Below are positions 6,304 to 46,287 of a stretch of DNA of 64,000 nt, piece after piece. A model generated the notes under the pieces. That model ran no database searches, was not told where the DNA came from, and saw nothing but the letters and a program-made list of their open reading frames with translations. Numbering within the stretch: the stretch's first letter is position 1; each line of letters begins with the position of its first letter. A program made the translations under genes and the position numbers. This DNA is from Microgenomates group bacterium (GTDB lineage: Bacteria; Patescibacteriota; Microgenomatia; UBA12405), in assembly GCA_049303675.1 (NCBI GenBank), contig JBAQNJ010000001.1:71494-135493 (forward strand), written 5' to 3'.

Positions 6304-6750
6304 CTAATTTCTAAAAGTTACCTTAATCGTTTTGTTCAACGCCGTCCCCTCCACCACTCCTGTTAACTCAAATGTCCCTTCCTTGTTTGATTTAATGGCA
6401 AATGACACCTTACCATCAGTATTGGTCGTCGCTACCGCTGGAATAATATCCTCCATTCCTTCCAACATAACCTGCTTATTGGGAACTCCCTTGCTATTCT
6501 TATCCAAGATAAAGACATTCACAATACAATCATCTGTGCCATTAGCCTTGGCCAATATCTTCTGGCCCAAGATAGTTGAATCGCCCAGAGATACCATAGT
6601 GGCGGGTGCCGCCTTCGTCAGCGTAATCAAAGCTCTTGGCACCACGTAAGCCGCCATAAATACAATAAAGACGATTGCTACTACAATTCCCCCAACCTTT
6701 AGATACAAACCAGTGTTTGAATTCATAAAATATGATACCACAAAAGTCAA
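6304..6750 (-). CDS. Small membrane-anchored Big_1-like Ig-domain protein, paralogous to the gene at 627..1031
   Basis: It has an N-terminal TM segment (IVVAIVFIVFMAAYVV) followed by a single Ig-like domain, and ends in ..KTIKVTFRN just as 627..1031 ends in ..TVKVTFY. It lies convergent with the LamG gene. Confidence 0.6.
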   Translation of the reverse strand: MTFVVSYFMNSNTGLYLKVGGIVVAIVFIVFMAAYVVPRALITLTKAAPATMVSLGDSTILGQKILAKANGTDDCIVNVFILDKNSKGVPNKQVMLEGMEDIIPAVATTNTDGKVSFAIKSNKEGTFELTGVVEGTALNKTIKVTFRN

Positions 6751-7387
6751 TTAACAGAAAAATACTATTATTGCTAATGAAAAAATAATTAATATTTTAC
6801 CGTTAATCAGCCAAAAATAAAATAATCAGGACCCATTCCCCTACTTCCTATTTCACCGTCTATGCTCACTCAATACTAACTATAACACATCAGTTAAACT
6901 CTATCCTAAATAGTCTATCTATATCATCAACTCCCTATCAAAATTAACAACCATAATTTACCTCAATATATCAAATTTTAGTCAAAATACTCCAATTTTA
7001 TCTATCAATTAGTATCATACTATCTTAACCGCACTTCTCCGCAAACAACTATAAATTTAACTATCTAGTTGGCTATTAATAGATATCTATAGCCATACAT
7101 TGATAGTAGAAAAATATTCGTGTAAACAATTGTGAAAGTTAACCGCAGCCACTATACGGGGATAAAACTATATCATCCATACTATCAAAATATATCAGTT
7201 TCTACCTATTTTTAGCCTGTTGACACTCTTTTCCTAATAGTAGATATTTAATATATTAATCATTCAGCTTGATAATTATGTATAAAAAATATAATTCCAA
7301 ACCTAATAATTTATCACCGCTTCTCGAACGGCTCGCCCCCCTTCTTATCGTCGCTGCGTCGTTTGTTTGGCTCTGGAGATAAATTTT

Positions 7388-7951
7388 ATGAACTATCTCC
7401 CCCAGTTTAAAATTTGGCTTGAGCAAAAGGGCTATTCCGACTCTACCAGCCGCAACTATCTCGCCGATCTGGGTAAGTATCTTGAATATATCAATCACCT
7501 TCCCCAACGTGTCTCGATGGACATCTCGTCAGATCCTGAGCCATCCGTTGGGCACATTTTGTCCGCTGACATCGTCGGGCTCTATGTATCCTACCTCACC
7601 GATAAAAACAACTCTTCTCGCTACTTAGCATCCCTCCGTCTGTTTTGCCAGTTTGCCCTCGATCAGCATCTGATAACTCAAAACCCATTTAAGTCAATTT
7701 ACCGTCCCCCTCGATCCCCTGAATTATCCGACCTGGTTACTCAATATGAAACCCACCTCCTCAAGCACAATACCCCTCCAGCCACTATTCGCAACTACAT
7801 CAATGACCTACACCAATATATCAGTTGGTTAGAATCAAAACCCACCCTACCCTCCCTTGAAAAGGGAGGCCAAACTTTTACTTCTTCCGTTACAAGCTCC
7901 CCTTCATCAAGGGGAGATGCCCAAAGGGCAGAGGGGTTTTTTGAATCTTAA
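7388..7951 (+). CDS. Tandem phage-integrase core-binding (N-terminal SAM-like) domains with no catalytic domain. This is most likely the true 5' end of the giant gene, separated from it by a 1-nt frameshift.
   Basis: The first repeat is 'FKIWLEQKGYSDSTSRNYLADLGKYLEYI ... YVSYLTDKNNSSRYLASLRLFCQFALDQHLITQNP', a complete XerD-like core-binding fold. A second copy begins at 'YETHLLKHNTPPATIRNYINDLHQYISWL' and continues in the giant-ORF frame as 'QRLSQYADYLKSQGLSDSSIRRKLSSLSSFQKYLVKKKLINSP'. The ORF track starts at TTG 7367, and the ATG at 7388 is preceded by GGAG. The ORF overlaps 7857..37634 in another frame. Confidence 0.55.
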   Translation: MNYLPQFKIWLEQKGYSDSTSRNYLADLGKYLEYINHLPQRVSMDISSDPEPSVGHILSADIVGLYVSYLTDKNNSSRYLASLRLFCQFALDQHLITQNPFKSIYRPPRSPELSDLVTQYETHLLKHNTPPATIRNYINDLHQYISWLESKPTLPSLEKGGQTFTSSVTSSPSSRGDAQRAEGFFES

Positions 7952-10900
7952 TTCTCAAATCAACCAGCAACGCTTGTCCCAATATGCAGACTACTTAAAA
8001 TCTCAGGGACTTTCTGATTCTTCCATTCGTCGCAAGCTCTCCTCCCTCTCTTCCTTCCAAAAATATTTGGTGAAGAAAAAATTAATTAATTCCCCTGTAC
8101 GGGCAGGTTTTATACCTGCCCCATCCGGGCAACCACAAGGATTGCCCCTACAACCACTAAAATCCAATAAATCATTCCTCCAAAACCACTTTTTCACAAA
8201 ATACCTCCTCGCTGCTTCGATATTAATCTTATTAGGCGGCCTCAGTTATACCCTATACACTCAGGTTTTCAATCGCGCCTCCAAAAACCTCGCTTATTCC
8301 TCTGCCTCTAGTCCCATTACCCCCAATCGAATTTTGTCGTTCCAAGGTCGTCTGACTGACTCCTCCGGAAATCCCATTTCTTCCTCCACCGCCACTGTCT
8401 TCAAACTCTTCAATTCTGGTACCGGTGGTACCGAGCTCTATACTTCCGGCGCCGGCAATAGTCAGGTAGTCGTCCCCGATGAAAATGGAATATTCTCAGT
8501 AGTTATTGGTCGAAGTCATGGTCTAGGTATCCCCGCCTCAGTTTTCTCAGAAAACGCTGATGTCTATCTCGAAATCACTGCCGGTGGGGAAACTATGAAT
8601 CCTCGCCAACAAATAGCTACCGTTGGCTATGCCCTCAACTCTGAAACATTGCAAGGACTACCACCATCTGCTAGCGGTATGAGCAATACAGTGCTAGTTA
8701 TTGATGGCTCTGGCAATCTAAACCTTGGTGAAACCTCCCCTTCAATCATTTCCACCTCAGGTACATTTGGACTCGAAGGTCAAGCTATGTTAATCAAGGC
8801 TAGCGATGGCTCTGGGGGTGATATTACTATCAATCCTGATGCCGCCGGCAAGCTCAAATTAATTACCGAGGGGGCCGGCACTACTGCTGCCGGTGGTTTT
8901 ATCGAAGCTACCAATGCCAATCTGGCCAGCGGCAATTTATTCTCTGGTCTAATTCGCAACGACAATCCCAATTATAATTTTCTCGATTTCTCTAATTACA
9001 ATATCGGCACCACCGCCATTGCTTCGCGCTTTTCAGTCACTGCCAACGGCACTGTCAATGTTGGTACTGGTATAACTACGCCAAAGATTACTATCTCTGT
9101 TGGTGCTTCCAGTAGTTATATTCTTCAGTCAGATGCCTTTGGCAATGCCAGCTGGGTTAACCCTGGATCCGCTGGTATTGGTACCAGCTATGATGCTGGT
9201 GCTGGGTTAACGAAAACAGGCAGTGTTTTTAGTCTCAATGTTGGCTATACCAACACTTGGACTGCACTCCAAAACTTCACCAATATCAACGTTGGTGGTA
9301 CCGCAATCCTCAACAATCTTTTTGCTACTGGTAATGTTGGTATTGGTACCACCGCCCCCACCTACAAGCTTGAATTAGTCGGTGGGGCCTCAATCTTCCG
9401 CATTGGTGATACTAATGGCAATACCTTAGTTGATATCAGTGAAACCAGTGCTCAATTTAATCTTCCCACAACATTTACCTCTACTGGTGATGTCAATATG
9501 GCCAATGATTTAAATTTCACCAATGCCACCGCATCTACTATCCACTCCGCCGCCCCGCTCTACCTCGAAGCCGGCGAATCGTTCAACTCATCTGATTTAA
9601 CTTTCAAAACCTTTAATTCTGGTAATCTCGTATTCGATACTGCTGGTTTTACCTCACTTCAAGCACAAAATTGGACCCTGGCTACCGGTACCACCAATTC
9701 TCTAAATATATCAAACGGCCTCATTTCCGTTGATACACTTAATTCTCGAGTCGGCATTGGCACCACCGCCCCCGGCTATACCCTCAGCGTCGGCGGCACC
9801 ACCTATACCAACAATCTCTTCACCTCCGGCAATGTCGGCATCGGAACAACAGGGCCAAGTGACAAATTACATATTGTAGATGCAACTGCACCAAACATAC
9901 GTTTCCAAATTCAAGGCAATGCAGGTTATTCACAAATTAAAGGCGGTAATGATTTATCTTTTTATACATATAACGCCGGAATTTTTGAAAGATTTAGAAT
10001 CGCCAATGACGGCAATGTTGGGATTGGAACGACTAGCCCTGCAACACTTCTAGAACTATCACATGCTACAACCCCAATACTTAGAGTCGGTAGAAATGAC
10101 ACATTAGTCGCAACAGGAGAAAGTCTTGGTTCTTTGGAATTTTATACAAACGATACTGGTCACGAAGGTGTTGTTGGTAAAATCGAGTCCATTGCTGTTG
10201 GCACAAATGCTCAAGCACATTTAGGATTCTTCACCGGTGGCATCGGCGAAGTTGGAAATCAAGCATTCTTTGAGAAAATGAGACTCACTTATGATGGCAG
10301 TCTCGGTATCGGCACCACTGCTCCATCCAAAAAACTCGATGTCGCCGGTGACATTAACTTAACTGGAACAATATTTTCAAACGGTACTTCCGGTACCTCC
10401 GGTCAAGTGTTAACCAGCACTGGCACTGGTCTAAATTGGGTCAACGCATCATCTGTCGGTGGTACATACGTCTTTGCCAACGGCCTCACCAACACTGGTA
10501 CTTTCGTCGGTCTCGGAGGCACTCTAACTCAAGACGTTCGCCTAAACATCGGCAATACCGAAGTCCTCTTTCTTAAAAATTCAAATGGATATATCGGTGT
10601 TGGGACAACAAATCCAACTTCCGCATTTCAAGTCTATTCTTTAGGTATTAACAATAGCTCTCAAATTGTCCCCGGCGCAGCCGCTGGTAACGTTGATGTC
10701 TCCGGTGGGCTGTGGAGAGTCGCCAATTTAGCCACTGGGAATCATAATGAAACACTTTCTTTTCAATCTGGCAGACAATACACTACCGCAAGCGGAACTA
10801 ACAACGCTATCACTATCAATCCCAGCGTAGTTCCTACTAGTGGCACCTTAGCAGTTTCTATATTCAATTTAGCTCCAACTATAAACCAAACAGGAGGTTC

Positions 10901-13900
10901 GAATGGAATTACCCGAGGCATATATGTCAATCCCACACTTACCTCAGCGGCTGACTTTAGAGCTATTGAAATTGCCAATAATGCTGGATATGGCATATAT
11001 CAGTCAGGTGCAAGTGCAAGTAATTATTTTAATGGCAATGTCGGTATCGGTACTACTGCTCCAACAGGTGCGTTAAATATCAACTCAAACAGCTTTACAC
11101 CAGTACGCTGGGGATCATTATCTGCTGATTACGGTTATTTGACATTTAGTAGTAATTTAGCTAGAGTTGGAAGTTTAGTTGGATCAGATCTTTCTTTAGA
11201 AGCAAACGCCCAACCAGTTATCAGATTAACCACCACCGGCAATGTCGGCATTGGCAACACCAACCCAAGTGCAAAACTAGAAATATCAACCAACGGCTCT
11301 AATACCCCAGGGACAAACCAACATCTAGTTTTTTCCACTACTCCAGGAATTCCCCTTTTTGGATTCAGAATGGACGCCAGCAACGATCATTTAATAATAG
11401 ACAAAAGTTGGTCATCATGGGGCACTCCCGCATTGGCAATTAATAGAAATACAGGTAATCTCGGTATCGGCACCACTGCACCAAGTAAAAAACTCGATGT
11501 TGCTGGTGACATCAATTTAACCGGGACAATTTTTTCAAATGGCACCTCTGGTACCTCCGGACAAGTCTTAACCAGCACCGGCACTGCTCTCCAATGGGTC
11601 AACGCTTCTTCTGTAGGTGGAACTTTTGTTTTTGCCAATGGTCTTACCAACAATGGCACTTTCGTTGGACTGGGTGGAACCCTGACCACCGACACTCGCC
11701 TAAATATCGGCAATACCGAAGTATTATTTTTTAAAAATTCAAATGGGTACGTGGGTATCGGTACCACCTCCCCCTCCAAAAAACTCGATGTCGCTGGTGA
11801 TATCAATTTAACTGGTACCATTTTCACCACCGGTACCTCTGGAACTAGTGGTCAAGTTCTTTCCTCTACCGGCACTGGCTTACAATGGGTCAATGCATCA
11901 GGCCTCGGCCAAACTTATTCCCCCACCAACGGTTTATCAGAAATTTCTACAAACGTCTTTGGACTAGGTGGCACATTAACTCAAAATACTCAAATTGGAA
12001 CATCATCTTTTAGCCTATCATTAGGCATCAATACAACAACACCCACTTTGTATCTATCATCAAGTGGAAATATTGGATTGGGGACAACTGGACCTGGTGG
12101 AATAATACCAAATGGATTTACATCAACAAACTCATCTATTTTAGAAATTAAATCAAAGGCAAATAATAGTGATGTAGGAATATTCTTACGTGATCCAAAT
12201 AGTAGTAGTTATGTTGGTATGGATATATGGGCAAGTAATAATAATGGCCGCAATTACATTGATAATCGTTATAACGATCCTGGAGCATTAACAATATTTA
12301 GAATGAGAACAACTGGAACTCCGGTCAACGCAATGTCTATTTCAGGAAGTGGCAATGTCGGCATCGGGACCACCGCTCCTTCCAAAAAACTCGATGTCGC
12401 TGGTGACATCAATCTAACTGGCACCATTTTCTCCAATGGCACCTCCGGCACCTCTGGTCAAATCCTCTCTTCCACTGGTACAGGATTATCTTGGATCAAT
12501 GCATCATCTGTTGGTGGCACTTACGTCTTTGCCAACGGCCTCACCAACAATGGCACTTTTGTCGGTCTCGGTGGCACATTAACTCAAGATGTTCGCCTAA
12601 ACATCGGCAACACCGAAGTTTTATTTTTCAAAAATTCAAATGGGTATGTTGGTATTGGTACATCTAACCCAACTGACAATCTCACCATTGTTCCCGGCGC
12701 CGCCAAAGGTATCACCATCCGCGAGTCAGATAATGGCAACACCGCTTTAACACTCTACGCAGGTAGCCAATCAGGCGTCTTCGAAGGCCTCAGTAACGGA
12801 GTTAAAACTTTTTCTCTAAACAGCTATTCAGGGTCAAATAGCTTTATTAATGTACTTAATTTTGGTATTGGCATAACTGACCCTCTCTACAAACTTCATG
12901 TCAATGGCGATGCCCTTATCTCCACCCGTCTCGGCATCGGCGCCACCAATCCTCTCTACACCCTCAATGCCGGCGGCACTGCTTCTTTTACCAATCTCTT
13001 CGCTTCCGGTAACGTTGGCATTGGGACGACAAATCCTGGAGCTAGATTACAAGTAGTTGGTGGAGGAGTAAACTCCTTACCCGCAACATCAGGTTCTACA
13101 CAAGGAACAGGGTTGGTTGCCAGATTTGGAGGCAATGCAAGTTTAATCGACGCAGTAGTAGACATTGGATGGGGAGCAAGCGGCGCCACATGGGGATCTT
13201 GGATACAAGCTACAAATAAAGCAAGTTTAAATGTCAACTATGATTTATTACTCAATCCAAACGGTGGCAACGTCGGCATCGGCACTACTAATCCAACAAG
13301 CAAACTATTTGTTTTGGATAATACCGATGCCGTTGCTGCCACTATCCAGAATGCATTCTACGAACAACTAAATCTCAAAGGTACCGACCCTACCAGAAGT
13401 GGTGGTCTACGCATCGAAAATGCAGGTGGAAAACTGGCATTCTTAAATTTATCCGGTGGTTCAGCCACAGTTCCAACTAACACCCTCATGCTCACTAATT
13501 ACGACGCTGGTGGCGGCATTATGTTTGGTACAGGCTACTTCAACCCTCTGATGACCATTCTAAACGGTGGCAATGTCGGTATTGGTACCTCTGCTCCTGC
13601 CTACACTCTTGATGTTGGCGGTTCCGGTAACATCAATCTCACAGGCACCATTTTCTCAAATGGCACCTCTGGCACCTCTGGTCAAGTTCTCTCCTCTACT
13701 GGCACTGGTTTACAATGGGTATCAGCCACCGGCCTCGGTCAAACCTATTCTGCCGACAACGGTCTTCATATGACGGGTAATGTAGTTGGACTAGGTGGTA
13801 CTTTGACTGAAAATACACGTATAAATATCGGCAATACCGAGATTTTATACCTTAGCACCAATGGCAATGTTGGGATTGGAACAACAAGTCCAACCGGAAA

Positions 13901-34900: not shown

Positions 34901-37634
34901 TCTTTTCCTAGCAAATGACGATGGCGGAACAGGCAGACACAGTGGAGCTATAGTTATGGGTAAAGAATCAAATTGGGTCGCCGCCTCGGCAAATTATCCT
35001 GCCTACCTTTCTTTGTGGACACGACCTTCTGCTGGCGATGAAACAGAAAGACTCAGAATTACCAGCACAGGTAATGTCGGTATCGGAACAACGAATCCAG
35101 CTCAACCTCTCCACCTATACAAAGACAACGGCTCTACTGCTGGAATTGCCTATCCTCTTCGCATCGATAGCACCACCAGCGCCTCCGGCAATCTAAATGG
35201 TTCTGGACTTGAATTTTTCTGGGCAACCAGAAGTTCCGGTGCTATTGAAACTATGCGTACAAATCCTGCGGGCGATTATGGCACTGCACTTATCTTCAAA
35301 AACAATGCCGCCGGTTCCTCAGGTGGCACCACCGCCGGCTTATCCGAGCGTATGAGAATCGATACCGCCGGCAATGTTGGTATCGGCACCACATCACCAA
35401 TCTCCAAGTTACATGTCGAAGGTGCAGGTGAAAGCGGCAACCCCACCGTCGGCGGAGTCAAGAGTGCCACACTTAGCGTCATCTCCACCGACAACCTTGG
35501 TGGCTACGGAGGAGGCATTGAATTTGGCGGTAAAAACGGCCAGACATTCGCCGGCATCAAGTCAGCCATTAGCGATGGTACCAGTAACGGAACTGGTCAA
35601 CTATATATATCCAGTCGAGTTCTCACCAGCGACGCCTATATGACCCCAGTAGTAACGATCAGGAATAGTGGCAATGTCGGTATCGGTACAACAGAACCTG
35701 CCTACAAACTCGACGTCAACGGTTCAGTAAATTTTGGCGTTGGTACCAGCTTCTTTATCACCAACATTGGTGTCACCACAACTGGTACTTACTATCGTAT
35801 GTTAATTCAAAGTGACGGTCGCGTTGTCAAACGAGGAGCATCTGGCGCCGATATCGCCGAAAGATATCTATCTACTGATACCACTTTAAAACCAGGTGAT
35901 TTGGTAGTTATTGACAATCAAACCTCAGAAAATATCTCAAAATCAAGCCAATCTTATCAAAATTCACTCATGGGTATAATCTCCACCAATCCTTGGGACA
36001 CCATGAACGATGCCCTCATGGACAATCCAAATGCAAAATCTGTCGGTATTTTGGGTAAACTTCCCACCATTGTCACCACTTCTTTGGATAATCCCATCCA
36101 AATCACCGATCCAATTACCTCTTCCAGTATCCCCGGAACCGGTATGAAACTCACCAAAGCCGGCTATATTGTTGGACGTGCTCTCGAATCCACCCAAAAC
36201 TGGAATAGTCAAATCTGTCCTGCAGTAAATTCAATCAATGACATCGTTTGGCCCGACGATGATGGTACCAATCAAAATCATCCCTGTTTTAGTCTTCCCA
36301 ACAACACTTTTGTTGGTAAGATTTTAGTCTACGTTCAATCCAGTTGGTATGACCCCGATACCCAAATTACTGACACTGGCGATATCAATATTAATTACAA
36401 TATTTCCGATTCAGTCCTCGCCAGTTTAGGTTACAATGGTAGCAAAAATGAAATTGAAAATGCCGTCTACAGTGTCCACGATTCAAATGGCAATGTTATT
36501 ACTAAAATGGCTCAATTTGCCCAGATCTCTGTCGCCAAAGTCAAAGCCGGTCTAATTACTACCACCAATTTAATCGCCAAAAACATTGTCGCCGACTCCA
36601 CCAAATCCAAGATTGTCAAAACCGACCTCCTAACTCCTCTTGATGAAATTACTGATACTATCATTGTCGATGGCAATCTCACTGCCCAAAAAATCGGTGC
36701 TTCCGAAGCTTCTTTCTCCACTGTCTATGCTGATCAAATTATTAATCCTGAAGGCAATATTTCCGATGTTATGGCCAGCAAAATTGCTGCTCTGCGTAGC
36801 GAAATCCAAGCCACCATTGCTGGAATTGGTGCTACTACAGCCGAATCAACGCCCTCTGCTCTCGTCGCCGACATGCCCAATTGGACCTTTGATTCCGGCA
36901 CCTCCCTCACCCAAATCAACGGCTCCATGTCTCTCTCCGACAATCTAGTTATTGGTGGCCAACTCAATGTCCTCGGTAATACGCAGCTCGCCAATGCCTT
37001 TATTACCGGCACCTTCACCGCTGGTGAAATCGCCATCAAAGACAACTTTATCGAGACTACTGCTACCACTCTCTTTATCCAACCCAGTGGCATGGGTTCA
37101 GTCAATCTGATGAACAACACCCTCGTTATTGCCGAAAATGGTGAAGTTACCCTCAATGGCAATCTCAACATTTCGGGCAAATTAACTGCCTCTGAGGCCA
37201 CCGTTTCCGGTAGCCTCTTTGCCAATCTCATCAACGCTGATGAAATCAATACTAAGAAATTAACCGCCGAGAGCATCAATGTCTCTACCGACAGTGCCTC
37301 CGTCATTATTGCCGACGGCGGCTTTGCCCAATTGGCCACCTCCTCCGCCACCGTCGCCTCCAATGCCACCGCCGGCACTGCCATTCTGCCTGCCGGCAAG
37401 ACTGAACTCGTCATTCACAATTCCAAAATATCTCCCAACTCCATGGTCTACCTCACCCCAGTTGGCTCCACCAACAATCAAGTGATTTACCTCAAATCCA
37501 AGTTTATTTCACCTACCCCAACTGCAGTGGAATCTACCGATTCTGCCGCCACAATTGAGCCATCCAATTTCACCATCGCCCTCGACCAACCTCTCACCTC
37601 CGATATTAATATTAATTGGTGGATCATAAACTAA
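7857..37634 (+). CDS. Giant (9925-aa as called, about 10,080 aa if joined to 7388..7951) TM-anchored fibrous surface protein. It carries about 80 tail-fibre-like 'GNVGIGTTxPxxKLDV' modules, an embedded LamG domain, a Gly/Ala-rich beta-helix-like tandem-repeat core, and a C-terminal domain ending in WWIIN.
   Basis: An uninterrupted 29,778-nt ORF. The TM helix is 'YLLAASILILLGGLSYTLYTQVF' at about 8200-8270. Modules of roughly 110-125 aa recur in three subfamilies. Examples are 'GNVGIGTTAPSKKLDVAGDINLTGTIFSNGTSGTSGQVL.STGTGL.WVNASSVGGTYVFANGLTN.GTFVGLGGTLTQDVRLNIGNTEVLFLKNSNGYVGIG' and 'KLDVNGSVNIGGS..I.G..IG.GT..L.ID.NG...K'. A LamG_3 domain lies at about 14230-14900 ('FPFSEGVGATSYDKS..N' ... 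'WHYVAFTFNG..KDFKLYVDG' ... 'LDELRSYSRILTDSEI'). Gly/Ala-rich repeats occupy 22400-26720. Confidence 0.9.
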   Translation: MKREAKLLLLPLQAPLHQGEMPKGQRGFLNLNSQINQQRLSQYADYLKSQGLSDSSIRRKLSSLSSFQKYLVKKKLINSPVRAGFIPAPSGQPQGLPLQPLKSNKSFLQNHFFTKYLLAASILILLGGLSYTLYTQVFNRASKNLAYSSASSPITPNRILSFQGRLTDSSGNPISSSTATVFKLFNSGTGGTELYTSGAGNSQVVVPDENGIFSVVIGRSHGLGIPASVFSENADVYLEITAGGETMNPRQQIATVGYALNSETLQGLPPSASGMSNTVLVIDGSGNLNLGETSPSIISTSGTFGLEGQAMLIKASDGSGGDITINPDAAGKLKLITEGAGTTAAGGFIEATNANLASGNLFSGLIRNDNPNYNFLDFSNYNIGTTAIASRFSVTANGTVNVGTGITTPKITISVGASSSYILQSDAFGNASWVNPGSAGIGTSYDAGAGLTKTGSVFSLNVGYTNTWTALQNFTNINVGGTAILNNLFATGNVGIGTTAPTYKLELVGGASIFRIGDTNGNTLVDISETSAQFNLPTTFTSTGDVNMANDLNFTNATASTIHSAAPLYLEAGESFNSSDLTFKTFNSGNLVFDTAGFTSLQAQNWTLATGTTNSLNISNGLISVDTLNSRVGIGTTAPGYTLSVGGTTYTNNLFTSGNVGIGTTGPSDKLHIVDATAPNIRFQIQGNAGYSQIKGGNDLSFYTYNAGIFERFRIANDGNVGIGTTSPATLLELSHATTPILRVGRNDTLVATGESLGSLEFYTNDTGHEGVVGKIESIAVGTNAQAHLGFFTGGIGEVGNQAFFEKMRLTYDGSLGIGTTAPSKKLDVAGDINLTGTIFSNGTSGTSGQVLTSTGTGLNWVNASSVGGTYVFANGLTNTGTFVGLGGTLTQDVRLNIGNTEVLFLKNSNGYIGVGTTNPTSAFQVYSLGINNSSQIVPGAAAGNVDVSGGLWRVANLATGNHNETLSFQSGRQYTTASGTNNAITINPSVVPTSGTLAVSIFNLAPTINQTGGSNGITRGIYVNPTLTSAADFRAIEIANNAGYGIYQSGASASNYFNGNVGIGTTAPTGALNINSNSFTPVRWGSLSADYGYLTFSSNLARVGSLVGSDLSLEANAQPVIRLTTTGNVGIGNTNPSAKLEISTNGSNTPGTNQHLVFSTTPGIPLFGFRMDASNDHLIIDKSWSSWGTPALAINRNTGNLGIGTTAPSKKLDVAGDINLTGTIFSNGTSGTSGQVLTSTGTALQWVNASSVGGTFVFANGLTNNGTFVGLGGTLTTDTRLNIGNTEVLFFKNSNGYVGIGTTSPSKKLDVAGDINLTGTIFTTGTSGTSGQVLSSTGTGLQWVNASGLGQTYSPTNGLSEISTNVFGLGGTLTQNTQIGTSSFSLSLGINTTTPTLYLSSSGNIGLGTTGPGGIIPNGFTSTNSSILEIKSKANNSDVGIFLRDPNSSSYVGMDIWASNNNGRNYIDNRYNDPGALTIFRMRTTGTPVNAMSISGSGNVGIGTTAPSKKLDVAGDINLTGTIFSNGTSGTSGQILSSTGTGLSWINASSVGGTYVFANGLTNNGTFVGLGGTLTQDVRLNIGNTEVLFFKNSNGYVGIGTSNPTDNLTIVPGAAKGITIRESDNGNTALTLYAGSQSGVFEGLSNGVKTFSLNSYSGSNSFINVLNFGIGITDPLYKLHVNGDALISTRLGIGATNPLYTLNAGGTASFTNLFASGNVGIGTTNPGARLQVVGGGVNSLPATSGSTQGTGLVARFGGNASLIDAVVDIGWGASGATWGSWIQATNKASLNVNYDLLLNPNGGNVGIGTTNPTSKLFVLDNTDAVAATIQNAFYEQLNLKGTDPTRSGGLRIENAGGKLAFLNLSGGSATVPTNTLMLTNYDAGGGIMFGTGYFNPLMTILNGGNVGIGTSAPAYTLDVGGSGNINLTGTIFSNGTSGTSGQVLSSTGTGLQWVSATGLGQTYSADNGLHMTGNVVGLGGTLTENTRINIGNTEILYLSTNGNVGIGTTSPTGKLEINSQGSGAANTLVLNSNGTPEPSLHFRYPSYPSSSFRMVAGSYRLQFQYNTGTDATPVWAQGFNMAKTGGIAIGSGYASYDPGNGNMIISGNVGIGTTAPSAKLDVNGNVRLVGNLASDAFYNSTDDGLISYFPFSEGVGATSYDKSRSGLNAQFVNSPSWSNGNFGNAIVLSSGTSQYATVASATSNTNLTFTGWVNTTDSSIMNIVSGNGVYGYISLNAGQFRVYDGTAWRSSSTFVNDGNWHYVAFTFNGTTKDFKLYVDGKLENSTTGTSTYSNGQLTHIGVFVTPTQRFFNGSLDELRSYSRILTDSEIRNQYNQGLGASSPYTASNGNFSIGTTVSTYKLNVAGDINLTGTIFSNGTSGTSGQILTSTGTGLNWVNASSVGGTYVFANGLTNNGTFVGLGGTLTQDVRLNIGNTEVLFLKNSNGYVGIGTTNPGAKLDVQGGNIYLNSSYSLIFKDTSNFNYGGITSDLGTGALLLKGGNSLTTGIAIDNSGNVGVGYINPGTAKLAINGNVGIGTTAPGKKLEVYSNSDYQLLLSGWNPTQGAGAGNGALLLGNVTAYQGRIHYDGVNTGYLYIDNSWNNDNGDIRFRTKTASTAIEALTIKGSGNVGIGTTSPIGKFDVRQTDGLTFGTIANFLNPANGSQATMVLGSGASGTGSSGQSTFYLADRGTNKWGMQLEYTTGDFKIIDADSSTNPFTIKNGAPSNTLFLGSTGNLGIGTTNPGYKLDVAGSIHVTSTSGIYGGNGNSHLYLSDSQTAIGFNNQSSEIQFTSNNMSFYTNSALAMQINSSGNLGIGTTSPTQKLDVNGSVNIGGSMTIGGLGIDVGTTALFIDSNGLITKRGLGSGAFSDGIGTTYSFTNGLTNTSNTISLGGTLTQDVRLNIGNTEVLFLKNSNGYVGIGTTNPSLKLTIGRQAAMESSYKSYSTSDQSGLEYYLINSSPYQRTLDIVANGGPVGGGDGGSEIRFLTNPGTSNTAVERLKISRDGNVGIGNTAPTYGFQVGASDLFVDTVNHVASIGIAPSSSYRLRLVSGILRFDGSGEIQMSGGGNWTGSGTLTMKPSSGDVILNPTLGNIGIGGSSPVAKLSVVGAGSSNIAVFEGSGNVGIGTTAPSKKLDIAGDINLTGTIFSNGTSGTSGQVLSSTGTGLQWVSATGLGQTYSADNGLHMTGNVVGLGGTITSNTNLTIGNTSILYIDGTSGYIGVGTVTPSQLIHIKGTGIATYNNFSIGGTINGTTLFTGDSANSQTGFIGRGGGSVGLTIPTLGTYGSVGLVGAAGGNTGGRAHVGVYGFSTINQQLGGNSANNSSGGYFLSTIGSTVVDFNGSLFGVRAKADTSAGTSTGGGVYGVYSQGVGQANNTVYGGYFSATGGTDNFAIYTDTAKSYFGGNVGIGTTAPTGALNINSNSFTPVRWGSLSADYGYLTFSSNLARVGSLVGSDLSLEANAQPVIRLTTTGNVGIGTTAPTQKLDINGSVNIGGSMTIGGLGIDVGTTALFIDANGLITKRALGSGAFSDGVGTTYSFTNGLTNTSNTISLGGTLTQDVRLNIGNTEVLFLKNSNGNVGIGTTNPNSTLDIFNANSSATLTNFTQAIDKSILNLVTTYSNMTYTGGIFWSTSNQQPTKPKAGIWTLNDGVNGTSLYLGTSNSYAAGITNQALTINPSGNVGIGTTNPSQKLHIYSGSSGLTPIGGPLVLESNTHQYMSIIGPANTQQAIIFGGGGNNDARISWEDGTRGDYLALGSSTQLILKSDSNVGIGTTAPSQKLDVNGSVNIGGSMTLTGSAIGTGTTALFVDSNGLITKRGLGSGAFSDGIGTTYSFTNGLTNTSNTISLGGALTTDTRLNIGNTEVLFLKNSNGFVGIGTTNPTAKLDIVQTPAIDGSEFLRLSGDRIWTFRQSKTGSSSQLELADLSGTKNFIISTLGNVGIGTTNPQMKLDVTSSTDATVGINAGNDAYLYLDRGSAASYQTATFLRDAGAGKWMYGQRTLGSNLFSFYSYGTSSDVVAIDYSTGNLGIGTTNPTQKLEVNGSVNIGGSMTLTGSAIGTGTTALFVDSNGLITKRGLGSGAFSDGVGTTYSFTNGLTNSSNTISLGGTLTQDVRLNIGNTEVLFLKNSNGFVGIGTTSPGSKLDVRLSGATTGSVMYFGNITDGVYGGLGFSSTGTSRMYLGYGGNEQISLTSSNVGIGTTNPGAKLDIEMGTDRSDTPGSSLALRISAGSATQAFGLRVNQSGNQNLNLDRYYGGAWSSALTIERSNGNVGIGTTNPASKLTILGGDIALREDDDGNDAVSIQSSTVSGWMYLKSGGANTVLLAGAADSYINGGNLGIGTTAPTQKLDVNGSVNIGGSLSIGSTFLVTNLNADYLDGLHSSSFLQVGGTGFFSVARNGLQSIGNTGIGLGGTLTQDTFINTSSYSLSFLGLGDSQSLFIGTSGYVGIGTTNPEQKLSVVGNAFIYDNNYLGAELVDSWTNHASFNYETFTSSGSDITSAINTSGNGIAYKIITIGQGRRYQATFNLTLNSGAYPSFRSATAPGSGAQITTTTVGGLNTIEWTSIRSGSEYITFSAGSSSDFSVSGFSLKEVVGGDINVAGLYTGGGTSGLKILANGNVGIGNTLPTKSLDITGDINLTGTIFTTGTSGSSGQVLTSTGTGLSWLTVAGLGQTYSANNGLSIVGNVIGLGGTLTQNTKIGTSDFSLTFLGLGNTVGFSQANNGFVGIGTSDPTNWLTIASNDTISSQISLRSTRAAIVAGNIIGGIDFNSNDTQFAVGGTKVASIQAIASSTHSTASFNTDLTFNVISGTTPDEAMRISANGNIGIGITSPTAALHIVGQNAIDTALVAGTTAPYAVNFVGGIGASNTRTTNANGGIGGGLLFTGGVGGIAGVATTASIGGGGGPITLVTGNGGFASVPGTGTNAGGPGGVFSITTGIGGSADGATTGTNTGGNGGAITLTTGAGGIGGTNSGTGNVTGGNGGAYTLTLGNGAATASIGVTSLSRLIGGAGGALTFTLASGGAVSGIGNSTNVAGAAGAFTITGGAGGAASVGGTGSNTAGSGSAFSWIAGVGGSAFGATSGINQAGVGGAITLTAGLGGFASGLDNVGSTMVSNRASGAGGAITITTGAGQIGFTGSNSGALTLATGAAGVGITGANSILGGSSGALNINVAAGGAANGVGSSLSGRIIGGAAGLLTMNLGAGGAATGIGNSTNTGGNAAGFTITGGAGGAVSVGGTGNNNGGIGSAFSWTSGAGGAASGLTSGINTAGAGGAIAITSGAGGIGSGNGNVGQTMTSGRFSGAGGAISITTGAGQIGFTGSNSGTITIATGAAGVGITGANSIVGGSSGLLFIGASAGGAATGVGSSISGRIIGGASGGVTIDPGLGGAATGIGDSSNTGGNAGVITITARAGGASSVGGTGTNNGGIGSAFLWTAGTGGAANGNTTGFNTGGAGGAIALTSGAGGVGGTNAVGATAAVTGGAGGSYTLTVGAGGAVASVGVTSLGRLIGGAGGGMTFTLSNGGAVSGIGNSTNTGGAAGGFTISGGAGGAASVGGTGSNTAGAGSAFSWTAGTGGAASGATSGINQAGAGGAIVITGGLGGAASGLDNIGSTMVSGRVSGVGGAISITTGAGQVGFTGSNSGALTLATGAAGVGITGANSILGGSSGALNINVAAGGAANSVGVTLSGRVIGGAAGLLSMNLGAGGAATGIGNSSNIGGNAANFTITGNAGGASSVGGTGTNTGGVGSVFSWTAGNGGAANGNTTGFNTGGNGGGITLTSGSGGIGGTNTVGATATVTGGTGGAYVLTLGNGGAVASVGVTSLGRLIGGGSGSLNLNLGAGGAVSGIGNSTNTAGTAGTFNIVGGAGGAASVGGTGSNTAGSGSAFQWVAGTGGSASGATSGINTAGAGGAITITGGLGGAATGLDNLGTTMVSNRFAGNGGAITITSGAGQVGFTGSNGGLFTIATGAAGVGITGANSITGGAGGTFNFTTAAGGAANSVGVTLSGRVIGGAGGVNLFTLGAGGAATGIGNSSNIGGNAGSLTFTGGVGGASSVGGTGTNTGGIGSVFSWTAGNGGAANGVTTGFNTGGAGGGIALTTGTGGIGGTVVAGSLATSTGGAGGAYTITTGAGGAVASVGVTSLGRIIGGNSSALTFTMGNGGAVSGIGSSTNTSGSAGNFVITGGAGGANSVGGTGNNTSGTGSAFTWTAGNGGAITGATTGSNIAGAGGAITIKAGTGGAASAGTTNVGGAGGFLYLSAGLGGVGTGGTSGTGGSIIFQTGSATTYSDRMAITANGNVGIGTTGPETKLQVSNGEILIAGSSGIGTQNGAIAFGSLSGGTALNYQSRIESYVPAGSAGVDYTDLRFITSYGAKYERMRISAFGYLGIGTTTPTKKLDVAGDINLTGTIFTTGTSGTSGQILSSTGTGLSWINASGVGTTKTYYAGSGLSLDIGNTFTLNLGSSNTWTALQTFSGNFAVGSSALVSNLNSQYLNFHDETYFLNIGNSGDFIRNQFAADQTANLRISGSAMFGGNVGIGTTNALYKLNVGGTANFTNLFASGNVGIGTTDPTEKLTVNGRIKSDTTTGFIINRPAVTDRNITIYTTGGSTDWVVGSVESDQFPSSDGTEFMIGTNVNNSKLWINSSGSVGIGTTSPLYKLDVNGVANVTQLGIGGTSTAKFNVVGNGNITTSLTVGTSLSVTGNVSIGGSLTAASLPVGVGTSILYISSTGVVTKGLSIGTTYAADNGLHMTGNIIGLGGTLNANTSIGTSSFSLNIGQGNTQALFISSSGNVGIGTTAPSGKFTVVGNQGDSRSVSIDNREIKFRGDTVAHMSILGPDTGKSFITFQNTSNGPSLGTTGPDLLTILSTGNVGIGTTNPTAKLDIASGNLGLIIGADVNADTRTTNTRKFARVGIPHYDLSQEEAIAFSMDSNLALTAINFGGGAATYNSATELNFFTGATTTTLAGTNRMKIDSTGNVGIGTTAPTQKLDVNGSVNIGGSLSIGSTYLVTNLNSDYLDGQHSSYFVNIGQTGSFITTLNEGIGISITGSGIGRTIALANTTVTAGSYGSGSSIPTFTVDAQGRLTAAGSVANIGTTYSADNGLHMTGNVIGLGGSLTEATRLNIGNTEVLYLSASGNVGIGTTNPLTTLQSNGSFSVTGGSAFAAGVEGLLAKYSSSTSYIQSQLTGTGMRNLEIHASSMVFKTGVGSTASTKMIIDSSGNVGIGTTSPTQKLDVNGSVNIGGSLSITGSAVGVGTSILYIDANGVVTKGLSIGTTYAADNGLHMTGNIIGLGGTLIENTTIGTSSFGLGIGTAGNALYNLSVGGTASFTNLFASGNVGIGATNPGQKLYVSGNTIITGNIGVGTVTNATSKLHIEAANAATLYGGNPVGNQGISVINSNDSLGTPYGIEFGGYHGYTNSGIYGVMDSSAGATTGDIAFALRKLTSDTNFTEAMRVTHEGNVGIGTTGPSELLDINGNLITDGILKFNESGRNSNFEGQIYYTSGADWFFGNRYNLDTANIYFQTKTSGTPVNALSILGSGNVGIGTSTPSQLLDVNGSVNIGGSLSITGSAVGVGTSILYIDANGVVTKGLSIGTTYAADNGLHITGNTIGLGGTLIENTQIGTSSFHLDFIGLGGTQSLHIDESGNIGLGGTGTAGTKFEITDPNQTSFNGLRITNNNPTSAGGNSANLVFRVNNNNGVGGYYGELTSVSAITDNIGGGARGTAMAFSVSVPQSNPSTLYEVFRVSSQGKFGIGTTSPQYALHVGGTGDALISTRLGIGSTNVLYALNVGNTANFANLFTTSSVNIGGSLTAASLPAGIGTSILYIDANGVVTKGLNVGTTYSADNGLHMTGNTIGLGGTLIENTTIGTSSFGLGIGVTGNALYNLSVGATTSLVNLFASGNVGIGTTNPGVKLDVSGALTSANYPQNLILRDTAGFAQNVGGGIGFFGKYNTAGDYAGYAAVQGVKENATDGNYAGALRLMTRVNLGGSYTERVRISSTGNVGIGTSSPTQLLDINGSVNIGGSLSITGSAVGIGTSILYIDANGVVTKGLNVGTTYSADNGLHMTGNVIGLGGSLTEATRLNIGNTEVLYISSNGNVGIGTTNPLTTLQSNGTFSVTGGSAFASGVEGLLAKYSGSTSYLQSQLTGTGMRNLEIHASSMIFRTGVGATTSTRMTINSSGYVGIGTTAPSQFLDVNGSVNIGGSLSIGSTFLVTNLNADMIDGLHSSSLGWVANVGTSNLTLNTGSSLSFVGVGISVTMVGNTMTFTSTSIGTTYSADNGLHMTGNIVGLGGTLTELTKIDQNGNNLGFFGTGNIGIGTTSPIAGSKLDVRGRITTATNDYIAGSTGSQLFAEMGATNGDTYGKLQAYITGATAYGNIAINPLGGKVGIGTTSPTQKLDVNGSVNIGGSLSITGSGVGVGTSVMYIDNNGLLTKGILSATNGLNFTSGAFGLGGTLTQNTRLTVGDTTVMFMNSTSGYVGIGTTSPQANLEIPGTFMVSYPPVPNAYNLKIESFYTGIASAVSYRFITKSTVGGTNTSLTLGYQGNIGVGYTMPVARLHVVGTGSSNIAIFDGSGNVGIGTTNPTYKLDVVGDINLTSTIFANGTSGAPGQVLSSTGVGLSWINVSSGTTYAFTNGLTNTSNTISLGGTLTSNTKFSVGNTAALFVNSTNGYVGIGSSDPISALTVNGTISANKFASITDFSRYFIDPANTSDVNGSIALHANGSLLFNVETVGNTQVAVVGTTSTRLKSYSNGFGIDTNIGTLGVGATINWSTALFVGSSGYIGIGTTNPTAQLEIAGSSSTISNSSGDITINSASNLISFSGDNIGNILNGYFSGSVGVGTSSPTASLHVVGAGSSAIAVFEGSGNVGIGTANPTAKLVISGTNGTLRFNPSQGTSGEIPSGTLLSSDSDNLTLVPAENTGTTGKKLSLEYFNQTGWYSGLELANVASGYGNLVLMKTGGNVGIGITDPTSKLHISIGTTASPITGGGDGINITNTDTTANSKSRILFLANDDGGTGRHSGAIVMGKESNWVAASANYPAYLSLWTRPSAGDETERLRITSTGNVGIGTTNPAQPLHLYKDNGSTAGIAYPLRIDSTTSASGNLNGSGLEFFWATRSSGAIETMRTNPAGDYGTALIFKNNAAGSSGGTTAGLSERMRIDTAGNVGIGTTSPISKLHVEGAGESGNPTVGGVKSATLSVISTDNLGGYGGGIEFGGKNGQTFAGIKSAISDGTSNGTGQLYISSRVLTSDAYMTPVVTIRNSGNVGIGTTEPAYKLDVNGSVNFGVGTSFFITNIGVTTTGTYYRMLIQSDGRVVKRGASGADIAERYLSTDTTLKPGDLVVIDNQTSENISKSSQSYQNSLMGIISTNPWDTMNDALMDNPNAKSVGILGKLPTIVTTSLDNPIQITDPITSSSIPGTGMKLTKAGYIVGRALESTQNWNSQICPAVNSINDIVWPDDDGTNQNHPCFSLPNNTFVGKILVYVQSSWYDPDTQITDTGDININYNISDSVLASLGYNGSKNEIENAVYSVHDSNGNVITKMAQFAQISVAKVKAGLITTTNLIAKNIVADSTKSKIVKTDLLTPLDEITDTIIVDGNLTAQKIGASEASFSTVYADQIINPEGNISDVMASKIAALRSEIQATIAGIGATTAESTPSALVADMPNWTFDSGTSLTQINGSMSLSDNLVIGGQLNVLGNTQLANAFITGTFTAGEIAIKDNFIETTATTLFIQPSGMGSVNLMNNTLVIAENGEVTLNGNLNISGKLTASEATVSGSLFANLINADEINTKKLTAESINVSTDSASVIIADGGFAQLATSSATVASNATAGTAILPAGKTELVIHNSKISPNSMVYLTPVGSTNNQVIYLKSKFISPTPTAVESTDSAATIEPSNFTIALDQPLTSDININWWIIN
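9300..22390 (+). repeat. First array of tail-fibre-like 'GNVGIGTT(A/N/S)P..KLDV' modules within the giant CDS. Several are near-identical at the DNA level, for example 11041-11260 against 18094-18310 at about 97% identity.
   Basis: The motif recurs about 45 times. Stretches of more than 200 nt are near-identical between distant copies. Confidence 0.85.
22400..26720 (+). repeat. Gly/Ala/Thr/Ser-rich coding tandem repeats inside the giant CDS, about 9 units with a period of roughly 480 nt and two alternating subtypes. The region is locally GC-richer.
   Basis: The unit 'GVTSL(S/G)R(L/I)IGG.GG.(L/M)TFTL..GGAVSGIGNSTN..G.AG.FTI.GGAGGA.SVGGTG.N..G.GSAF.W.AG.GG.A.G.TSGIN.AG.GGAI.(L/I)T.G.GG' recurs at about 22862, 24373, 25330 and 26285. 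An alternating 'G(V/S)(T/S)LSGR(V/I)IGGA.G.L.MNLGAGGAATGIGNS.N.GGNA' unit recurs at about 23420, 23960, 24920 and 25880. Confidence 0.85.
26720..35700 (+). repeat. Second array of 'GNVGIGTT.P..KLDV' modules within the giant CDS. It includes a segmental duplication, with about 29150-29500 matching 32030-32380 at about 90% nucleotide identity.
   Basis: The 'SVNIGGSLSITGSAVGVGTSILYIDANGVVTKGL(S/N)(I/V)GTTY(A/S)ADNGLHMTGN.IGLGG(T/S)L.E' units recur at about 27960, 29560, 30530, 31290, 31900 and 33060. Confidence 0.8.
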
Positions 37635-40570: not shown

Positions 40571-40572
40571 TA

Positions 40573-40627: not shown

Positions 40628-40628
40628 T

Positions 40629-41864: not shown

Positions 41865-41891
41865 TTACGAATTAAAAATTACGAATTTCAA

Positions 41892-42251: not shown

Positions 42252-42254
42252 TTT

Positions 42255-44231: not shown

Positions 44232-44257
44232 CCTATTTATTTCGTAATTCGTAATTT

Positions 44258-46228: not shown

Positions 46229-46287
46229 AATTCAGATTATCAAACCCTCGACAGTCCAACAACCCATCAAGACAACTTTTTCCCGCA

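Follow-up and report, generated by a model that had tools for sequence, protein, structure and literature searches.

A membrane-anchored, tail-fibre-like protein of about 9,900 residues encoded in a Microgenomates chromosome, probably a very long host adhesin

Introduction

What would a bacterium with a genome of about 1 Mb do with a single open reading frame (ORF) of almost 30 kb, and what kind of protein does such a frame encode? The question is raised by a 64,000-nucleotide stretch of DNA from a Microgenomates group bacterium of the Patescibacteria (GenBank assembly GCA_049303675.1, contig JBAQNJ010000001.1, positions 71,494 to 135,493), the whole of which is called the window here. Bacteria that belong to the Candidate Phyla Radiation (CPR), or Patescibacteria, are thought to live attached to other cells, and to our knowledge their attachment machinery is largely unknown outside Saccharibacteria and Absconditabacteria. 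It appears that the ORF is a chromosomal gene for a membrane-anchored fibre of about 9,900 residues, of the class of phage tail fibres and of the mosaic adhesive trimer (MAT) fibres of Bdellovibrio bacteriovorus, and that this fibre is probably a very long host adhesin. Very long adhesin genes, phage-like surface fibres of the MAT kind, and giant genes in ultra-small bacteria are already known, and the sequence of this gene has already been deposited; it is the interpretation that is new.

One open frame and its domains

The ORF listing and its translation give one open frame of 9,925 codons at 7857..37634 on the plus strand, with a sole, terminal stop, exactly the uninterrupted 29.8-kb frame that the initial annotation of the window had claimed. 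Given the base composition of the window, a stop-free run of this length has a chance probability of about 1e-224. The residue make-up (G 17%, T 13%, S 11%, N 9%, and two Cys in total) is extreme yet not that of junk. Codon comparison of paralogous module pairs yields a synonymous divergence (dS) of 0.4–1.0 and a ratio of nonsynonymous (dN) to synonymous divergence of 0.04–0.2, with dS values of 0.45–0.91 alongside dN values of 0.035–0.086; for the units of the Gly/Ala-rich block described below, dS is ≈1.0 and dN ≈0.2. The modules are ancient duplications and the protein is under purifying selection. The gene has also been called, as one unit of 9,905 residues, in the public MAG (metagenome-assembled genome) record GCA_049287145.1 ('Microgenomates group bacterium'; contig JBAQFH010000001.1, 998,417 bp). 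The improbability of the open run, the selection on its modules, and this gene call bear out the earlier view of a coherent, not a junk, frame. The gene makes up about 3% of the 998-kb contig; several percent of the coding capacity of a small genome had been foreseen. The 'low-GC' part of that description does not fit: GC across 2-kb segments ranges over 37–53%, being about 0.42–0.46 over most of the giant gene and at most 0.53 in the Gly/Ala block.

The domains of the protein are listed below in order; residue numbers throughout are those of the 9,925-codon ORF, which opens at 7857.

7941..8198, plus strand: cytoplasmic N-terminus with the third SAM-like repeat (YADYLKSQGLSDSSIRRKLSSLSSFQKYL), residues 29 to ~100 (Pfam PF02899, 4.6e-5; alignment)
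8199..8267, plus strand: single transmembrane (TM) helix YLLAASILILLGGLSYTLYTQVF, residues 115–137, a signal-anchor predicted N-in/C-out
8334..8681, plus strand: juxtamembrane β-rich domain LSFQGRLTD…PRQQIATVGYALNSETLQG, residues 160–275 (invariant alignment columns)
9330..22331, plus strand: module array I, ~40 'GNVGIGTTxPxxKL[DE]V' modules, residues 492–4825 (motif scans, PHROG)
14286..14876, plus strand: LamG/concanavalin-like lectin domain, residues 2144–2340 (BLASTP to the six Laminin_G_3 repeats of an upstream gene)
22332..26756, plus strand: Gly/Ala/Thr-rich block, residues 4826–6300 (1,475 residues), ~4.5 units of 319 residues
26757..35846, plus strand: module array II, ~35 further modules, residues 6301–9330 (motif scans; PHROG matches in the second half)
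35850..36359, plus strand: predicted Peptidase_G2-type intramolecular chaperone (IMC)/autoproteolytic domain, residues 9332–9501, from 'DIAERY' to WYDPD
36360..37631, plus strand: family C-terminal module of ~425 residues, residues 9502–9925 (alignment; it closes complete relatives)

Repeat modules and their relatives

Most informative for the class of the protein are the modules. The strict motif 'GIG[TN]..P' occurs 64 times and relaxed patterns 75–84 times, which makes the figure of about 80 'GNVGIGTTxPxxKLDV' modules given in the initial annotation a fair one; the number of modules is put here at about 64–78. Recurring module types include one of 97 residues ('AGDINLTGTIF…SGQVLTS…W') and one of 105 residues ('NGSVNIGGS…'). 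The PHROG families 9942 and 18345, both 'tail fiber protein', match many stretches of the first half (E=2.7e-80 and 5.9e-64) and of the second half (2.9e-33 and 8.6e-45). In Pfam the modules are unmatched; none of eight sub-regions of the giant protein has a significant hit, the best being Bactofilin (9e-4) and Wzt_C (0.052), both under cutoffs. NCBIfam returns only XerC/XerD N-terminal traces, which are weak TIGR matches to the N-terminal ~45 residues of the fibre (19–20 bits vs cutoffs of ~330).

A profile built from nine internal modules finds solved Bdellovibrio MAT fibres in the PDB. Its matches are 8ond (Bd2133, 9.5e-6), 8ol4 (2.5e-3), and, more weakly and below the threshold, 8ojn (0.023), 8on4, and 8oml. 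Plain sequence searches of the PDB with module, Gly/Ala, and C-terminal segments gave nothing useful, and profiles were needed. MAT fibres have been found by experiment to be intertwined trimeric β-helix/prism structures on the surface of the predator, with swappable tips; one of the fibres binds prey glycans, and they have a common capping-loop motif, V-G-G/N-π-x-x-P-x-x-x-L (Caulton et al. 2024, PMC10769870). The matched MAT stretches (GNVGIGATAPTAKLEV) closely resemble the repeat of the window protein, a likeness of sequence that is not mapped onto the published loop residues. The motif had been assigned to the tail-fibre class from its appearance, and both the PHROG families and the MAT structures agree with that assignment.

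The initial annotation noted conserved D-x-N-x-T/S sequons in the modules, and D-x-N-x-S/T is indeed frequent in the protein (28 vs 8.9±3.0 in shuffles), but these are no evidence for glycosylation. The excess arises because two module motifs, DVNGS and DINLT, were duplicated: their copies account for 21 of the 28, and N-x-S/T overall is not enriched (173 vs 196).

Inteins (PF14890, PF01079, PF07591) occur in several homologous fibres (P0002, P0003, P0030, P0032, P0116, and P0117); in P0002 and P0003 the intein sits after the module motif (…KLHIEGQC/VTGDS…). The window protein, with its two Cys, is without an intein.

Membrane anchor and SAM-like domain

The membrane anchor lies N-terminal to the modules. 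The TM helix at residues ~115–137 is the only 19-residue segment with a Kyte-Doolittle value >1.6 in 9,925 residues, and its position is kept in homologues, so that the TM helix noticed at the outset is borne out. The juxtamembrane domain that follows has no Pfam match; it is the most conserved signature of the family and the source of the patterns that retrieve 359 relatives.

The SAM-like repeat on the cytoplasmic side is of the integrase type. Two further repeats of this kind are found in a small upstream ORF, here called ORF A. In neither ORF A nor the fibre is there a catalytic domain (Phage_integrase, PF00589); only the N-terminal domains PF02899, PF13102, and PF13495 are present. Public records call dozens of homologues 'site-specific integrase, partial'. 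Since these proteins have only the SAM-like N-terminal repeats, joined to a TM helix and a fibre, and not the catalytic domain, such names are a systematic mis-annotation.

Predicted C-terminal chaperone and terminal module

The homologues of the last 637 residues, 28 proteins, share the ~425-residue terminal module, which always ends in NWWIIN or a near variant and has the signature …LASLGY..KNEIE…FITGTFTAGEIAIKDNFIETT…NATAGTA.LPAGKTE…NWWIIN. Directly before this module, homologues carry either Peptidase_S74 (SDxRLKxNI; PF13884) or a domain with an invariant D-x-A-E. In an alignment of seven sequences of the latter kind the D, A, and E do not vary, and the profile made from them matches the phi29 pre-neck appendage gp12 in the PDB (6qz9, 1.3e-3; 3gqh, 7.5e-3). 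DIAERY aligns on DFAEYF, the first residues of the deposited gp12 C-terminal-domain chain 3gqh, which we take to be the released gp12 autochaperone, cut between S691 and D692. PF11962 is matched by five of the seven aligned family members on their own (best 7e-6), and the C-terminal region of the window protein matches one relative, P0059, pairwise at 3e-5. What had been called a 'unique C-terminal region' is therefore better described as a predicted phi29-gp12-like chaperone domain plus a family-conserved module ending in NWWIIN.

LamG domain and Gly/Ala block

Two insertions interrupt the run of modules. The first is the LamG domain that the initial annotation had recognized; it is confirmed by its BLASTP matches to the Laminin_G_3 repeats, six in number, that the upstream gene encodes (E=2e-13 to 2e-10), and Pfam Laminin_G_2 falls below its cutoff (8.6e-4, 20.2 bits, cutoff 22.9).

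The second is the Gly/Ala block (G 31%, A 15%), which has a period of 319 residues composed of 183+136, a sub-repeat of ~26 residues, and hardly a charged residue. When 1.84 billion representatives were scanned exhaustively with HMMER, only seven relatives came up (best 8e-17), and a word-indexed homologue search gave one marginal match. All of the relatives adjoin IMC domains. For example, P0130 is TM-anchored and has propeller repeats and a Gly/Ala block before a G2-like IMC, and P0132 and P0133 are short fibre-like proteins with a Gly/Ala block and S74 at the end. Since all seven are IMC-bearing proteins, the block appears to be a rare shaft element of the same fibre world. It is probably a β-solenoid shaft.

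A widespread family and its expanded member

The N-terminal signature retrieves 94 proteins and 359 loci (GTDB species representatives), with the same SAM-like/TM layout in both sets. The relatives are nearly all named Patescibacteria, mainly of Microgenomates lineages. A few of the MAGs that bear the family go under the names Gammaproteobacteria, Pseudomonadales, Methanoperedens, or Spirochaetia, probably through errors of binning or naming.

Among the three closest relatives with full-length ORFs mapped onto the giant gene, two (L005 and L014) have fibre ORFs of 2,106 and 2,183 residues. Both align to the N-terminal region of the giant protein and end in the same C-terminal module, and both share the upstream Big_1 and LamG genes and, after the fibre, the same downstream TPR gene as the window. 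The L005 protein is 51% identical over the N-terminal ~670 residues, its C-terminal module can be recognised by eye as the same one, and the middle of the giant protein matches it many times over. Given these ~2,100-residue counterparts with shared flanks, the window gene is an about 4.7-fold expanded member of the family. Other complete relatives have 2,169–3,286 residues, and at least seven exceed 3,500 residues, running to the end of the fetched DNA.

The searchable literature yielded no description of this Patescibacteria fibre family or of the scale of its expansion here, of anchoring by a TM helix and a SAM-like domain with gene fission, or of a G2-or-S74 chaperone followed by a fixed terminal module.

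Proposed fibre and its role

Taken together, these features suggest the following model. The gene product would be a giant type-II membrane protein with a short cytoplasmic N-terminus, carrying the integrase-type SAM-like domain, and one TM anchor; two further SAM-like repeats would be supplied by the small, translationally coupled partner ORF. The ~9,800 extracellular residues would build a fibre of the phage-tail-fibre/MAT class, in which, as in MAT fibres and phage spikes, three chains may intertwine into a β-helical/prism shaft with the GNVGIGTTxPxxKL motif as its capping loops. Folding would begin at the C-terminus, nucleated by the phi29-gp12-type chaperone, which may afterwards cleave itself off. 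The LamG and other β-sandwich inserts would bind glycans along the fibre or at its end. The gene is presumed to have grown by repeated duplication and shuffling of modules shared with the phage tail-fibre gene pool.

The length of such a fibre can be estimated from MAT fibres. Bd3182 forms a fibre of ~550 Å and self-cleaves at S782, and residues 662–1031 of Bd2133 span 142 Å (PMC10769870). On a MAT scaling of 0.4–0.7 Å per residue, ~9,000 shaft residues would give ~0.3–0.7 µm, which would reach beyond a typical CPR cell. In the role proposed, the fibre would capture surface glycans of the episymbiont's host cell at long range and adhere to them. A host-dependent lifestyle has been inferred for these bacteria (PMC7143001, PMC8080830), and host capture with adhesion is therefore the most likely function. 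The attachment fibre of an episymbiont that the initial annotation had suggested thus survives as the best reading, one that is built on analogy.

Several points weigh against this account. Trimerisation, autocleavage, surface display, fibre length, and adhesin function are each reached by inference rather than directly. DNA-binding-type SAM-like domains at the cytoplasmic end are not accounted for by an adhesin. The window fibre is ~10 times longer than MAT fibres (9,900 vs ~1,000 residues), and MAT proteins have a cleavable signal peptide and an N-domain of ~130 residues, whereas the window protein has no signal peptide. At the C-terminus, the window sequence itself has no Pfam hit at the Peptidase_G2 threshold, so that membership is assigned by transitivity via its relatives. 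In the alignment, the residue preceding the conserved Asp is Ala (SGA/DIAERY), in place of the Ser of phi29, and cleavage may therefore not occur; the ~590 conserved residues C-terminal to the putative cut site would be odd if they were discarded.

Predicted structures add further points of this kind. The AlphaFold2 monomer of the C-terminal 637 residues has a mean predicted local distance difference test score (pLDDT) of 46, and Foldseek relates it to phage tailspike receptor-binding domains at a non-significant level (that of the Pam1 tailspike, E=0.016); the last ~95 residues reach pLDDT 74–86 and form a β-sandwich. Two Gly/Ala units modelled in the same way are all-β at a mean pLDDT of 47, and the Foldseek matches (Ag43, TibA, and tailspike β-helices, E≥0.079) are likewise non-significant. 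With pLDDT at 46–47, the Foldseek results are suggestive only. Of the 'Gly/Ala-rich beta-helix-like core' proposed earlier, then, the Gly/Ala block is real and its β-helix nature is weakly suggested.

It could also be reasoned that the protein is a structural or cohesive surface part. It might coat the cell as an envelope or S-layer-like layer, act as a spacer, or form fibres by which cells aggregate with their kin, build biofilms, or attach to minerals. Its gene lies in a conserved cluster of TM-anchored envelope proteins (Big_1, a protein with six LamG domains, and a Gly-rich protein of 978 residues), and the family occurs in hundreds of Microgenomates species, in any habitat. However, MAT and phage tail fibres, its closest characterised relatives, are recognition devices, the fibre has lectin-type inserts, and a 4.7-fold variation in length relative to the closest complete relatives suits an arms race or a need for reach more than a housekeeping coat. 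We therefore consider a structural or cohesive role unlikely, if the most serious competitor of the adhesin.

A bolder form of the adhesin proposal, which we offer as speculation and think rather improbable, holds that the family serves Microgenomates as their main organelle for capturing hosts: a trimeric 'harpoon' derived from phages and rooted in the membrane, of up to ~0.5 µm, with modules tuned per species (2,100–9,900 residues among close relatives), module exchange with phages, and a SAM-like link to DNA or a cytoplasmic partner. If this were true, module number would be set so as to reach through the host capsule or envelope, and the fibre would swap modules with the tail fibres of phages on the same hosts. 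The SAM-like repeats, some of them now on a separate protein, would couple the fibre base to DNA or a partner, for host-contact signalling or DNA uptake, and this would be a novel way of linking an adhesin across the membrane to domains that bind nucleic acids.

The more modest proposal, a host adhesin, already makes the family a concrete and widespread candidate for CPR attachment, with 359 species-level relatives, many of them mis-annotated as 'integrase' or hypothetical. The window member is an extreme case, at ~3% of a ~1-Mb genome. The family shows how a giant gene grows: its N- and C-terminal cassettes are fixed, and between them lie modules that were duplicated long ago and are under purifying selection. 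The LamG domain, the β-sandwich inserts, and the C-terminal module could be expressed separately for glycan binding, and a sub-micron fibre would in principle be visible to cryo-electron tomography.

Comparison with known systems

Among known systems, the MAT fibres (Bd2133, Bd3182, Bd1334, and others; PMC10769870) are the nearest in kind, being cell-encoded, tail-fibre-like fibres of a bacterium that lives on bacteria. Both have the same recurring capping-loop motif (…GNVGIGTxAPxxKLxV…), mosaic swappable modules with lectin-type inserts, and a conserved β-rich domain, alike in its place near the cell-proximal end, which has ~115 residues in the window protein. The C-terminus of a MAT is either an S74 chaperone/protease or another adhesive tip domain, and S74 is also found in many relatives of the window gene. 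In contrast to MAT fibres, the window protein has a TM helix as its anchor, a SAM-like domain in the cytoplasm, and a Gly/Ala solenoid-like block, and ends in a predicted chaperone of the Peptidase_G2 type, not S74, followed by ~425 conserved residues; its setting is a Gram-positive-like CPR envelope, not that of a diderm predator.

A second group is formed by phage tail fibres and tailspikes with a C-terminal IMC: phi29 gp12 (Peptidase_G2), K1F endosialidase and T5 pb1 (both Peptidase_S74), and PHROG 9942 and 18345. By the PHROG matches their modules are homologous to those of the window protein. The D-x-A-E of the window protein aligns with DFAEYF at the start of the gp12 C-terminal-domain chain, and trimer folding nucleated at the C-terminus is expected in both. 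Unlike phage fibres, the window fibre is far longer than any of them, has Ala and not Ser before the Asp, and is membrane-anchored, and its gene lies in a conserved chromosomal cluster among envelope and housekeeping genes.

Giant genes of Omnitrophota and other phyla are alike in being very long single ORFs of ultra-small, host-dependent bacteria, in their proposed role in attachment, and in that assemblies often fragment there. West-Roberts et al. 2023 (10.1101/2023.11.21.568195) call proteins of at least 10,000 residues 'large' and those of at least 30,000 'giant', and report that large genes are frequent in several phyla, with proteins of up to 85,804 residues. At 9,897–9,925 residues the window protein falls under the 'large' threshold, and the claim that its gene is among the largest bacterial genes cannot be kept. 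It also differs in having one TM helix and not many, no SecA/DEAD helicase (Pfam), and a composition of the tail-fibre type. In a term search of the full text of that paper, CPR occurs in the introduction only, and terms for tail fibres or Microgenomates do not occur.

In Vampirococcus lugosii, a predator of the CPR (Moreira et al. 2021, PMC8080830), the longest proteins have 1,392–4,163 residues and are membrane-located, and it has been proposed that they make up the fibrous surface and serve in host attachment. By their published description these are unlike the window protein in their WD40, TPR, and PKD-type domains and in that no tail-fibre or MAT modules are reported for them; they are also less than half its size.

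Start codon and ORF A

Where the fibre gene begins, and how it relates to ORF A, bears on the form of its cytoplasmic end. The features concerned are the following.

7220..7248, plus strand: promoter-like site TTGACA-17-GATATT, ~140 nucleotides 5' of ORF A (consensus scan 10/12), a candidate operon promoter
7388..7951, plus strand: ORF A, 187 residues, two integrase-type SAM-like (core-binding) repeats (MFZ2152887.1)
7941..37634, plus strand: giant fibre gene with corrected start TTG 7941, 9,897 residues, stop TAA 37632–37634

ORF A has Pfam matches to Phage_int_SAM_1 (2.9e-8), SAM_5, and SAM_4, and a ribosome site GGAGA-N8-ATG; it ends inside the opening codons of the fibre gene. The public record begins the fibre gene at ATG 7917 (9,905 residues). 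TTG 7941 has a Shine-Dalgarno (SD) sequence, GAGGGG, 4 nucleotides upstream, and a protein starting there begins MNLNSQINQQRLSQYADYLKS. A start codon (ATG, GTG, or TTG) is found 28–30 codons ahead of 'RKLSS' in ~36 related genomes, and TTG 7941 is likely the true start, giving 9,897 residues.

Three SAM-like repeats, the TM helix, and the ectodomain form one ORF in the best protein homologues (P0001–P0003) and in distant relatives, e.g. in Collierbacteria. In the close clade, whose members have 50–67% identity and come mostly from Shapirobacteria and Woesebacteria bins, an ORF of its own encodes repeats one and two and terminates inside the opening codons of the fibre gene, and in L001–L003 an in-frame stop and then an ATG lie between the repeats ORF and the fibre. 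By this comparison ORF A is read as the split-off N-terminus of the fibre protein and part of the same unit. As the split is conserved and the start codon keeps a fixed position, gene fission with translational coupling is favoured, not an error.

A fusion of ORF A and the giant ORF through a frameshift or sequencing error at the GGGGTTTTTTG run was considered because the top protein matches span both ORFs and a one-T deletion joins the frames; comparison of 80 loci led to its rejection. The related proposal that both ORFs make one protein of 10,081 residues, through a programmed +1 frameshift or an indel at the GGGG-TTTTTT-G run (7933–7943), draws on the single-ORF arrangement in distant relatives, on the removable T, and on the fact that most close relatives have the same +1 frame relation. 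That shared relation arises because the conserved N-terminal 'LNLN' codes TAA in the other frame. No slippery site is conserved, whereas ~36 close relatives do keep the start codon before RKLSS, an SD precedes the start in the window, and L001–L003 have a stop and an ATG with no frameshift; such a frameshift is thus very unlikely.

Immediately ahead of the fibre SD, at 7898–7943, lie the hairpins CTCCCCTT-CATC-AAGGGGAG, then GCCC-AAA-GGGC, then AGAGGGG-TTTT-TTG. Relatives have another hairpin at the same place before AGAGGG(G): GTCAC-TAA-GTGAC in L001, GCCCCGC-CACT-GCGGGGC in L032, and GTCC-ACA-GGAC in L008. The hairpins look covarying and may serve to control translation.

A family of perfect palindromes, CC(C/T)TCCCTT-N3-4-AAGGGAGG, has copies at 1159–1178, 1607–1626, 7851–7869, 7898–7915, and 58512–58531. 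Two opposite copies flank a small DUF559 endonuclease-like ORF (1188–1547, minus strand), a further two fall within ORF A, at the 3' end of its coding sequence, one of them being translated as 'PSLEKGG', and another is between the 5S and 23S rRNA genes. Peptides like the palindrome translation (PSLEKGW, PSLDRAG, LSLDRAR) occur in linkers of homologous fibre genes. This pattern suggests a REP- or RPE-like element entering linkers in-frame.

A chromosomal gene cluster

The neighbours of the fibre gene that share its setting are listed here.

1675..6192, plus strand: protein of 1,505 residues with six LamG_3 domains (Pfam Laminin_G_3, 8.8e-126)
6304..6750, minus strand: small TM-anchored Big_1 (invasin-like Ig) protein, divergent (Pfam Big_1, 8.6e-12)
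37634..40570, plus strand: downstream protein of 978 residues (MFZ3030317.1), TAATG overlap with the fibre stop, N-terminal TM anchor, Gly-rich

No neighbour of the fibre is more conserved than the divergent Big_1 gene, which keeps its position in 44 of 80 related loci; the multi-LamG gene lies upstream in 24, and orf45 and a second Big_1 protein are near the fibre in 29–40. The 978-residue protein has no Pfam match and contains a poly-Gly/Ser block (…GGGGGGDSDGS…GAGGGGGYGSVGTGG…GGGGGSGSGGSIYINS…); its homologues lie downstream of or beside fibre genes in L014, L057, L077, and L080. From this arrangement it is likely a co-translated envelope protein, possibly an accessory or base component of the fibre. 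The fibre gene thus belongs to a conserved cluster of genes for surface proteins. Elsewhere the window has the content of an ordinary chromosome, with 23S and 5S rRNA, tRNA-Ala, Rho, RadA, ribosomal protein S1, and an M23/LysM peptidase.

This setting also bears on whether the ORF is a phage or prophage tail-fibre gene sitting in the chromosome. The strong PHROG tail-fibre matches, an IMC domain of phage type, and the presence of the modules in at least 126 IMG/VR viral contigs would all be expected of such a gene. However, the 64-kb window shows no phage structural, replication, or lysis genes, the protein is anchored by a TM helix and reaches into the cytoplasm with a domain of its own, and synteny in the chromosome is kept across dozens of species. 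The N- and C-terminal family modules are absent from the 2.9 million viral contigs of IMG/VR, and tblastn of the modules against isolated phage genomes gives one match at E<1e-5, the distal tail fibre of Thermus phage phiFa (7e-6). A phage origin of the gene in this sense is hardly to be expected.

Integrity of the gene

Exact internal repeats in the giant ORF have a maximum length of 116 nucleotides, the DNA repeat copies have diverged to 60–86% identity, and Tandem Repeats Finder reported no tandem arrays; repeat collapse is therefore no concern. Proteins flanking the giant gene are found in two MAG records with consecutive accession numbers. The accession numbers of these proteins leave exactly one slot, read as that of the giant gene, and the gene order appears to be the same in the second record, which has a contig of 998,299 bp. 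On exact look-up under three start variants, the giant protein itself is absent from the protein collection and present in the gene-position index.

An assembly artefact of collapsed or chimeric repeats, or a decaying pseudogene, would be in line with Logan short-read contigs from related runs that end 3.2 kb inside the gene and with database homologues that are mostly 'partial' and end at contig edges, but it is scarcely credible against short and diverged repeats, 29.7 kb without stops, modules under purifying selection, N- and C-terminal family modules both present and in order, and a gene that lies within a 998-kb contig and apparently in the same gene order in a second record. The finding explains why such genes break short-read assemblies and go unnoticed.

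Other features of the window

Two tandem paralogous TPR proteins of 657 and 655 residues are encoded at 42255–44231 and 44258–46228 (minus strand), each with an antisense ORF of 152 residues at the same relative position (43753–44211 and 45750–46208, plus strand), and a third TPR gene lies at 40629–41864. GC skew on the plus strand is −0.3 to −0.4 over the whole window irrespective of gene orientation, e.g. at 40001–58000, and cumulative GC skew declines monotonically over the window; within the giant gene it is close to 0 or positive, owing to the GGN codons of Gly. The same strand disparity has been described in the Microgenomatia order UBA1400 (Kadnikov et al. 2020, PMC7143001).

The 23S rRNA match at 58643–61844 (minus strand) has 3,202 nucleotides vs a model of 2,925 positions, i.e. 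~280 nucleotides extra, perhaps an insertion or an intron. Upstream of the 23S lies tRNA-Ala(UGC) at 62122–62195 (minus strand), and beyond it, where 16S or tRNA-Ile would be expected, are two protein ORFs (region 62433–63929, minus strand). A similar interrupted rRNA cluster has been reported for Ca. Chazhemtobacterium (Kadnikov et al., PMC7143001).

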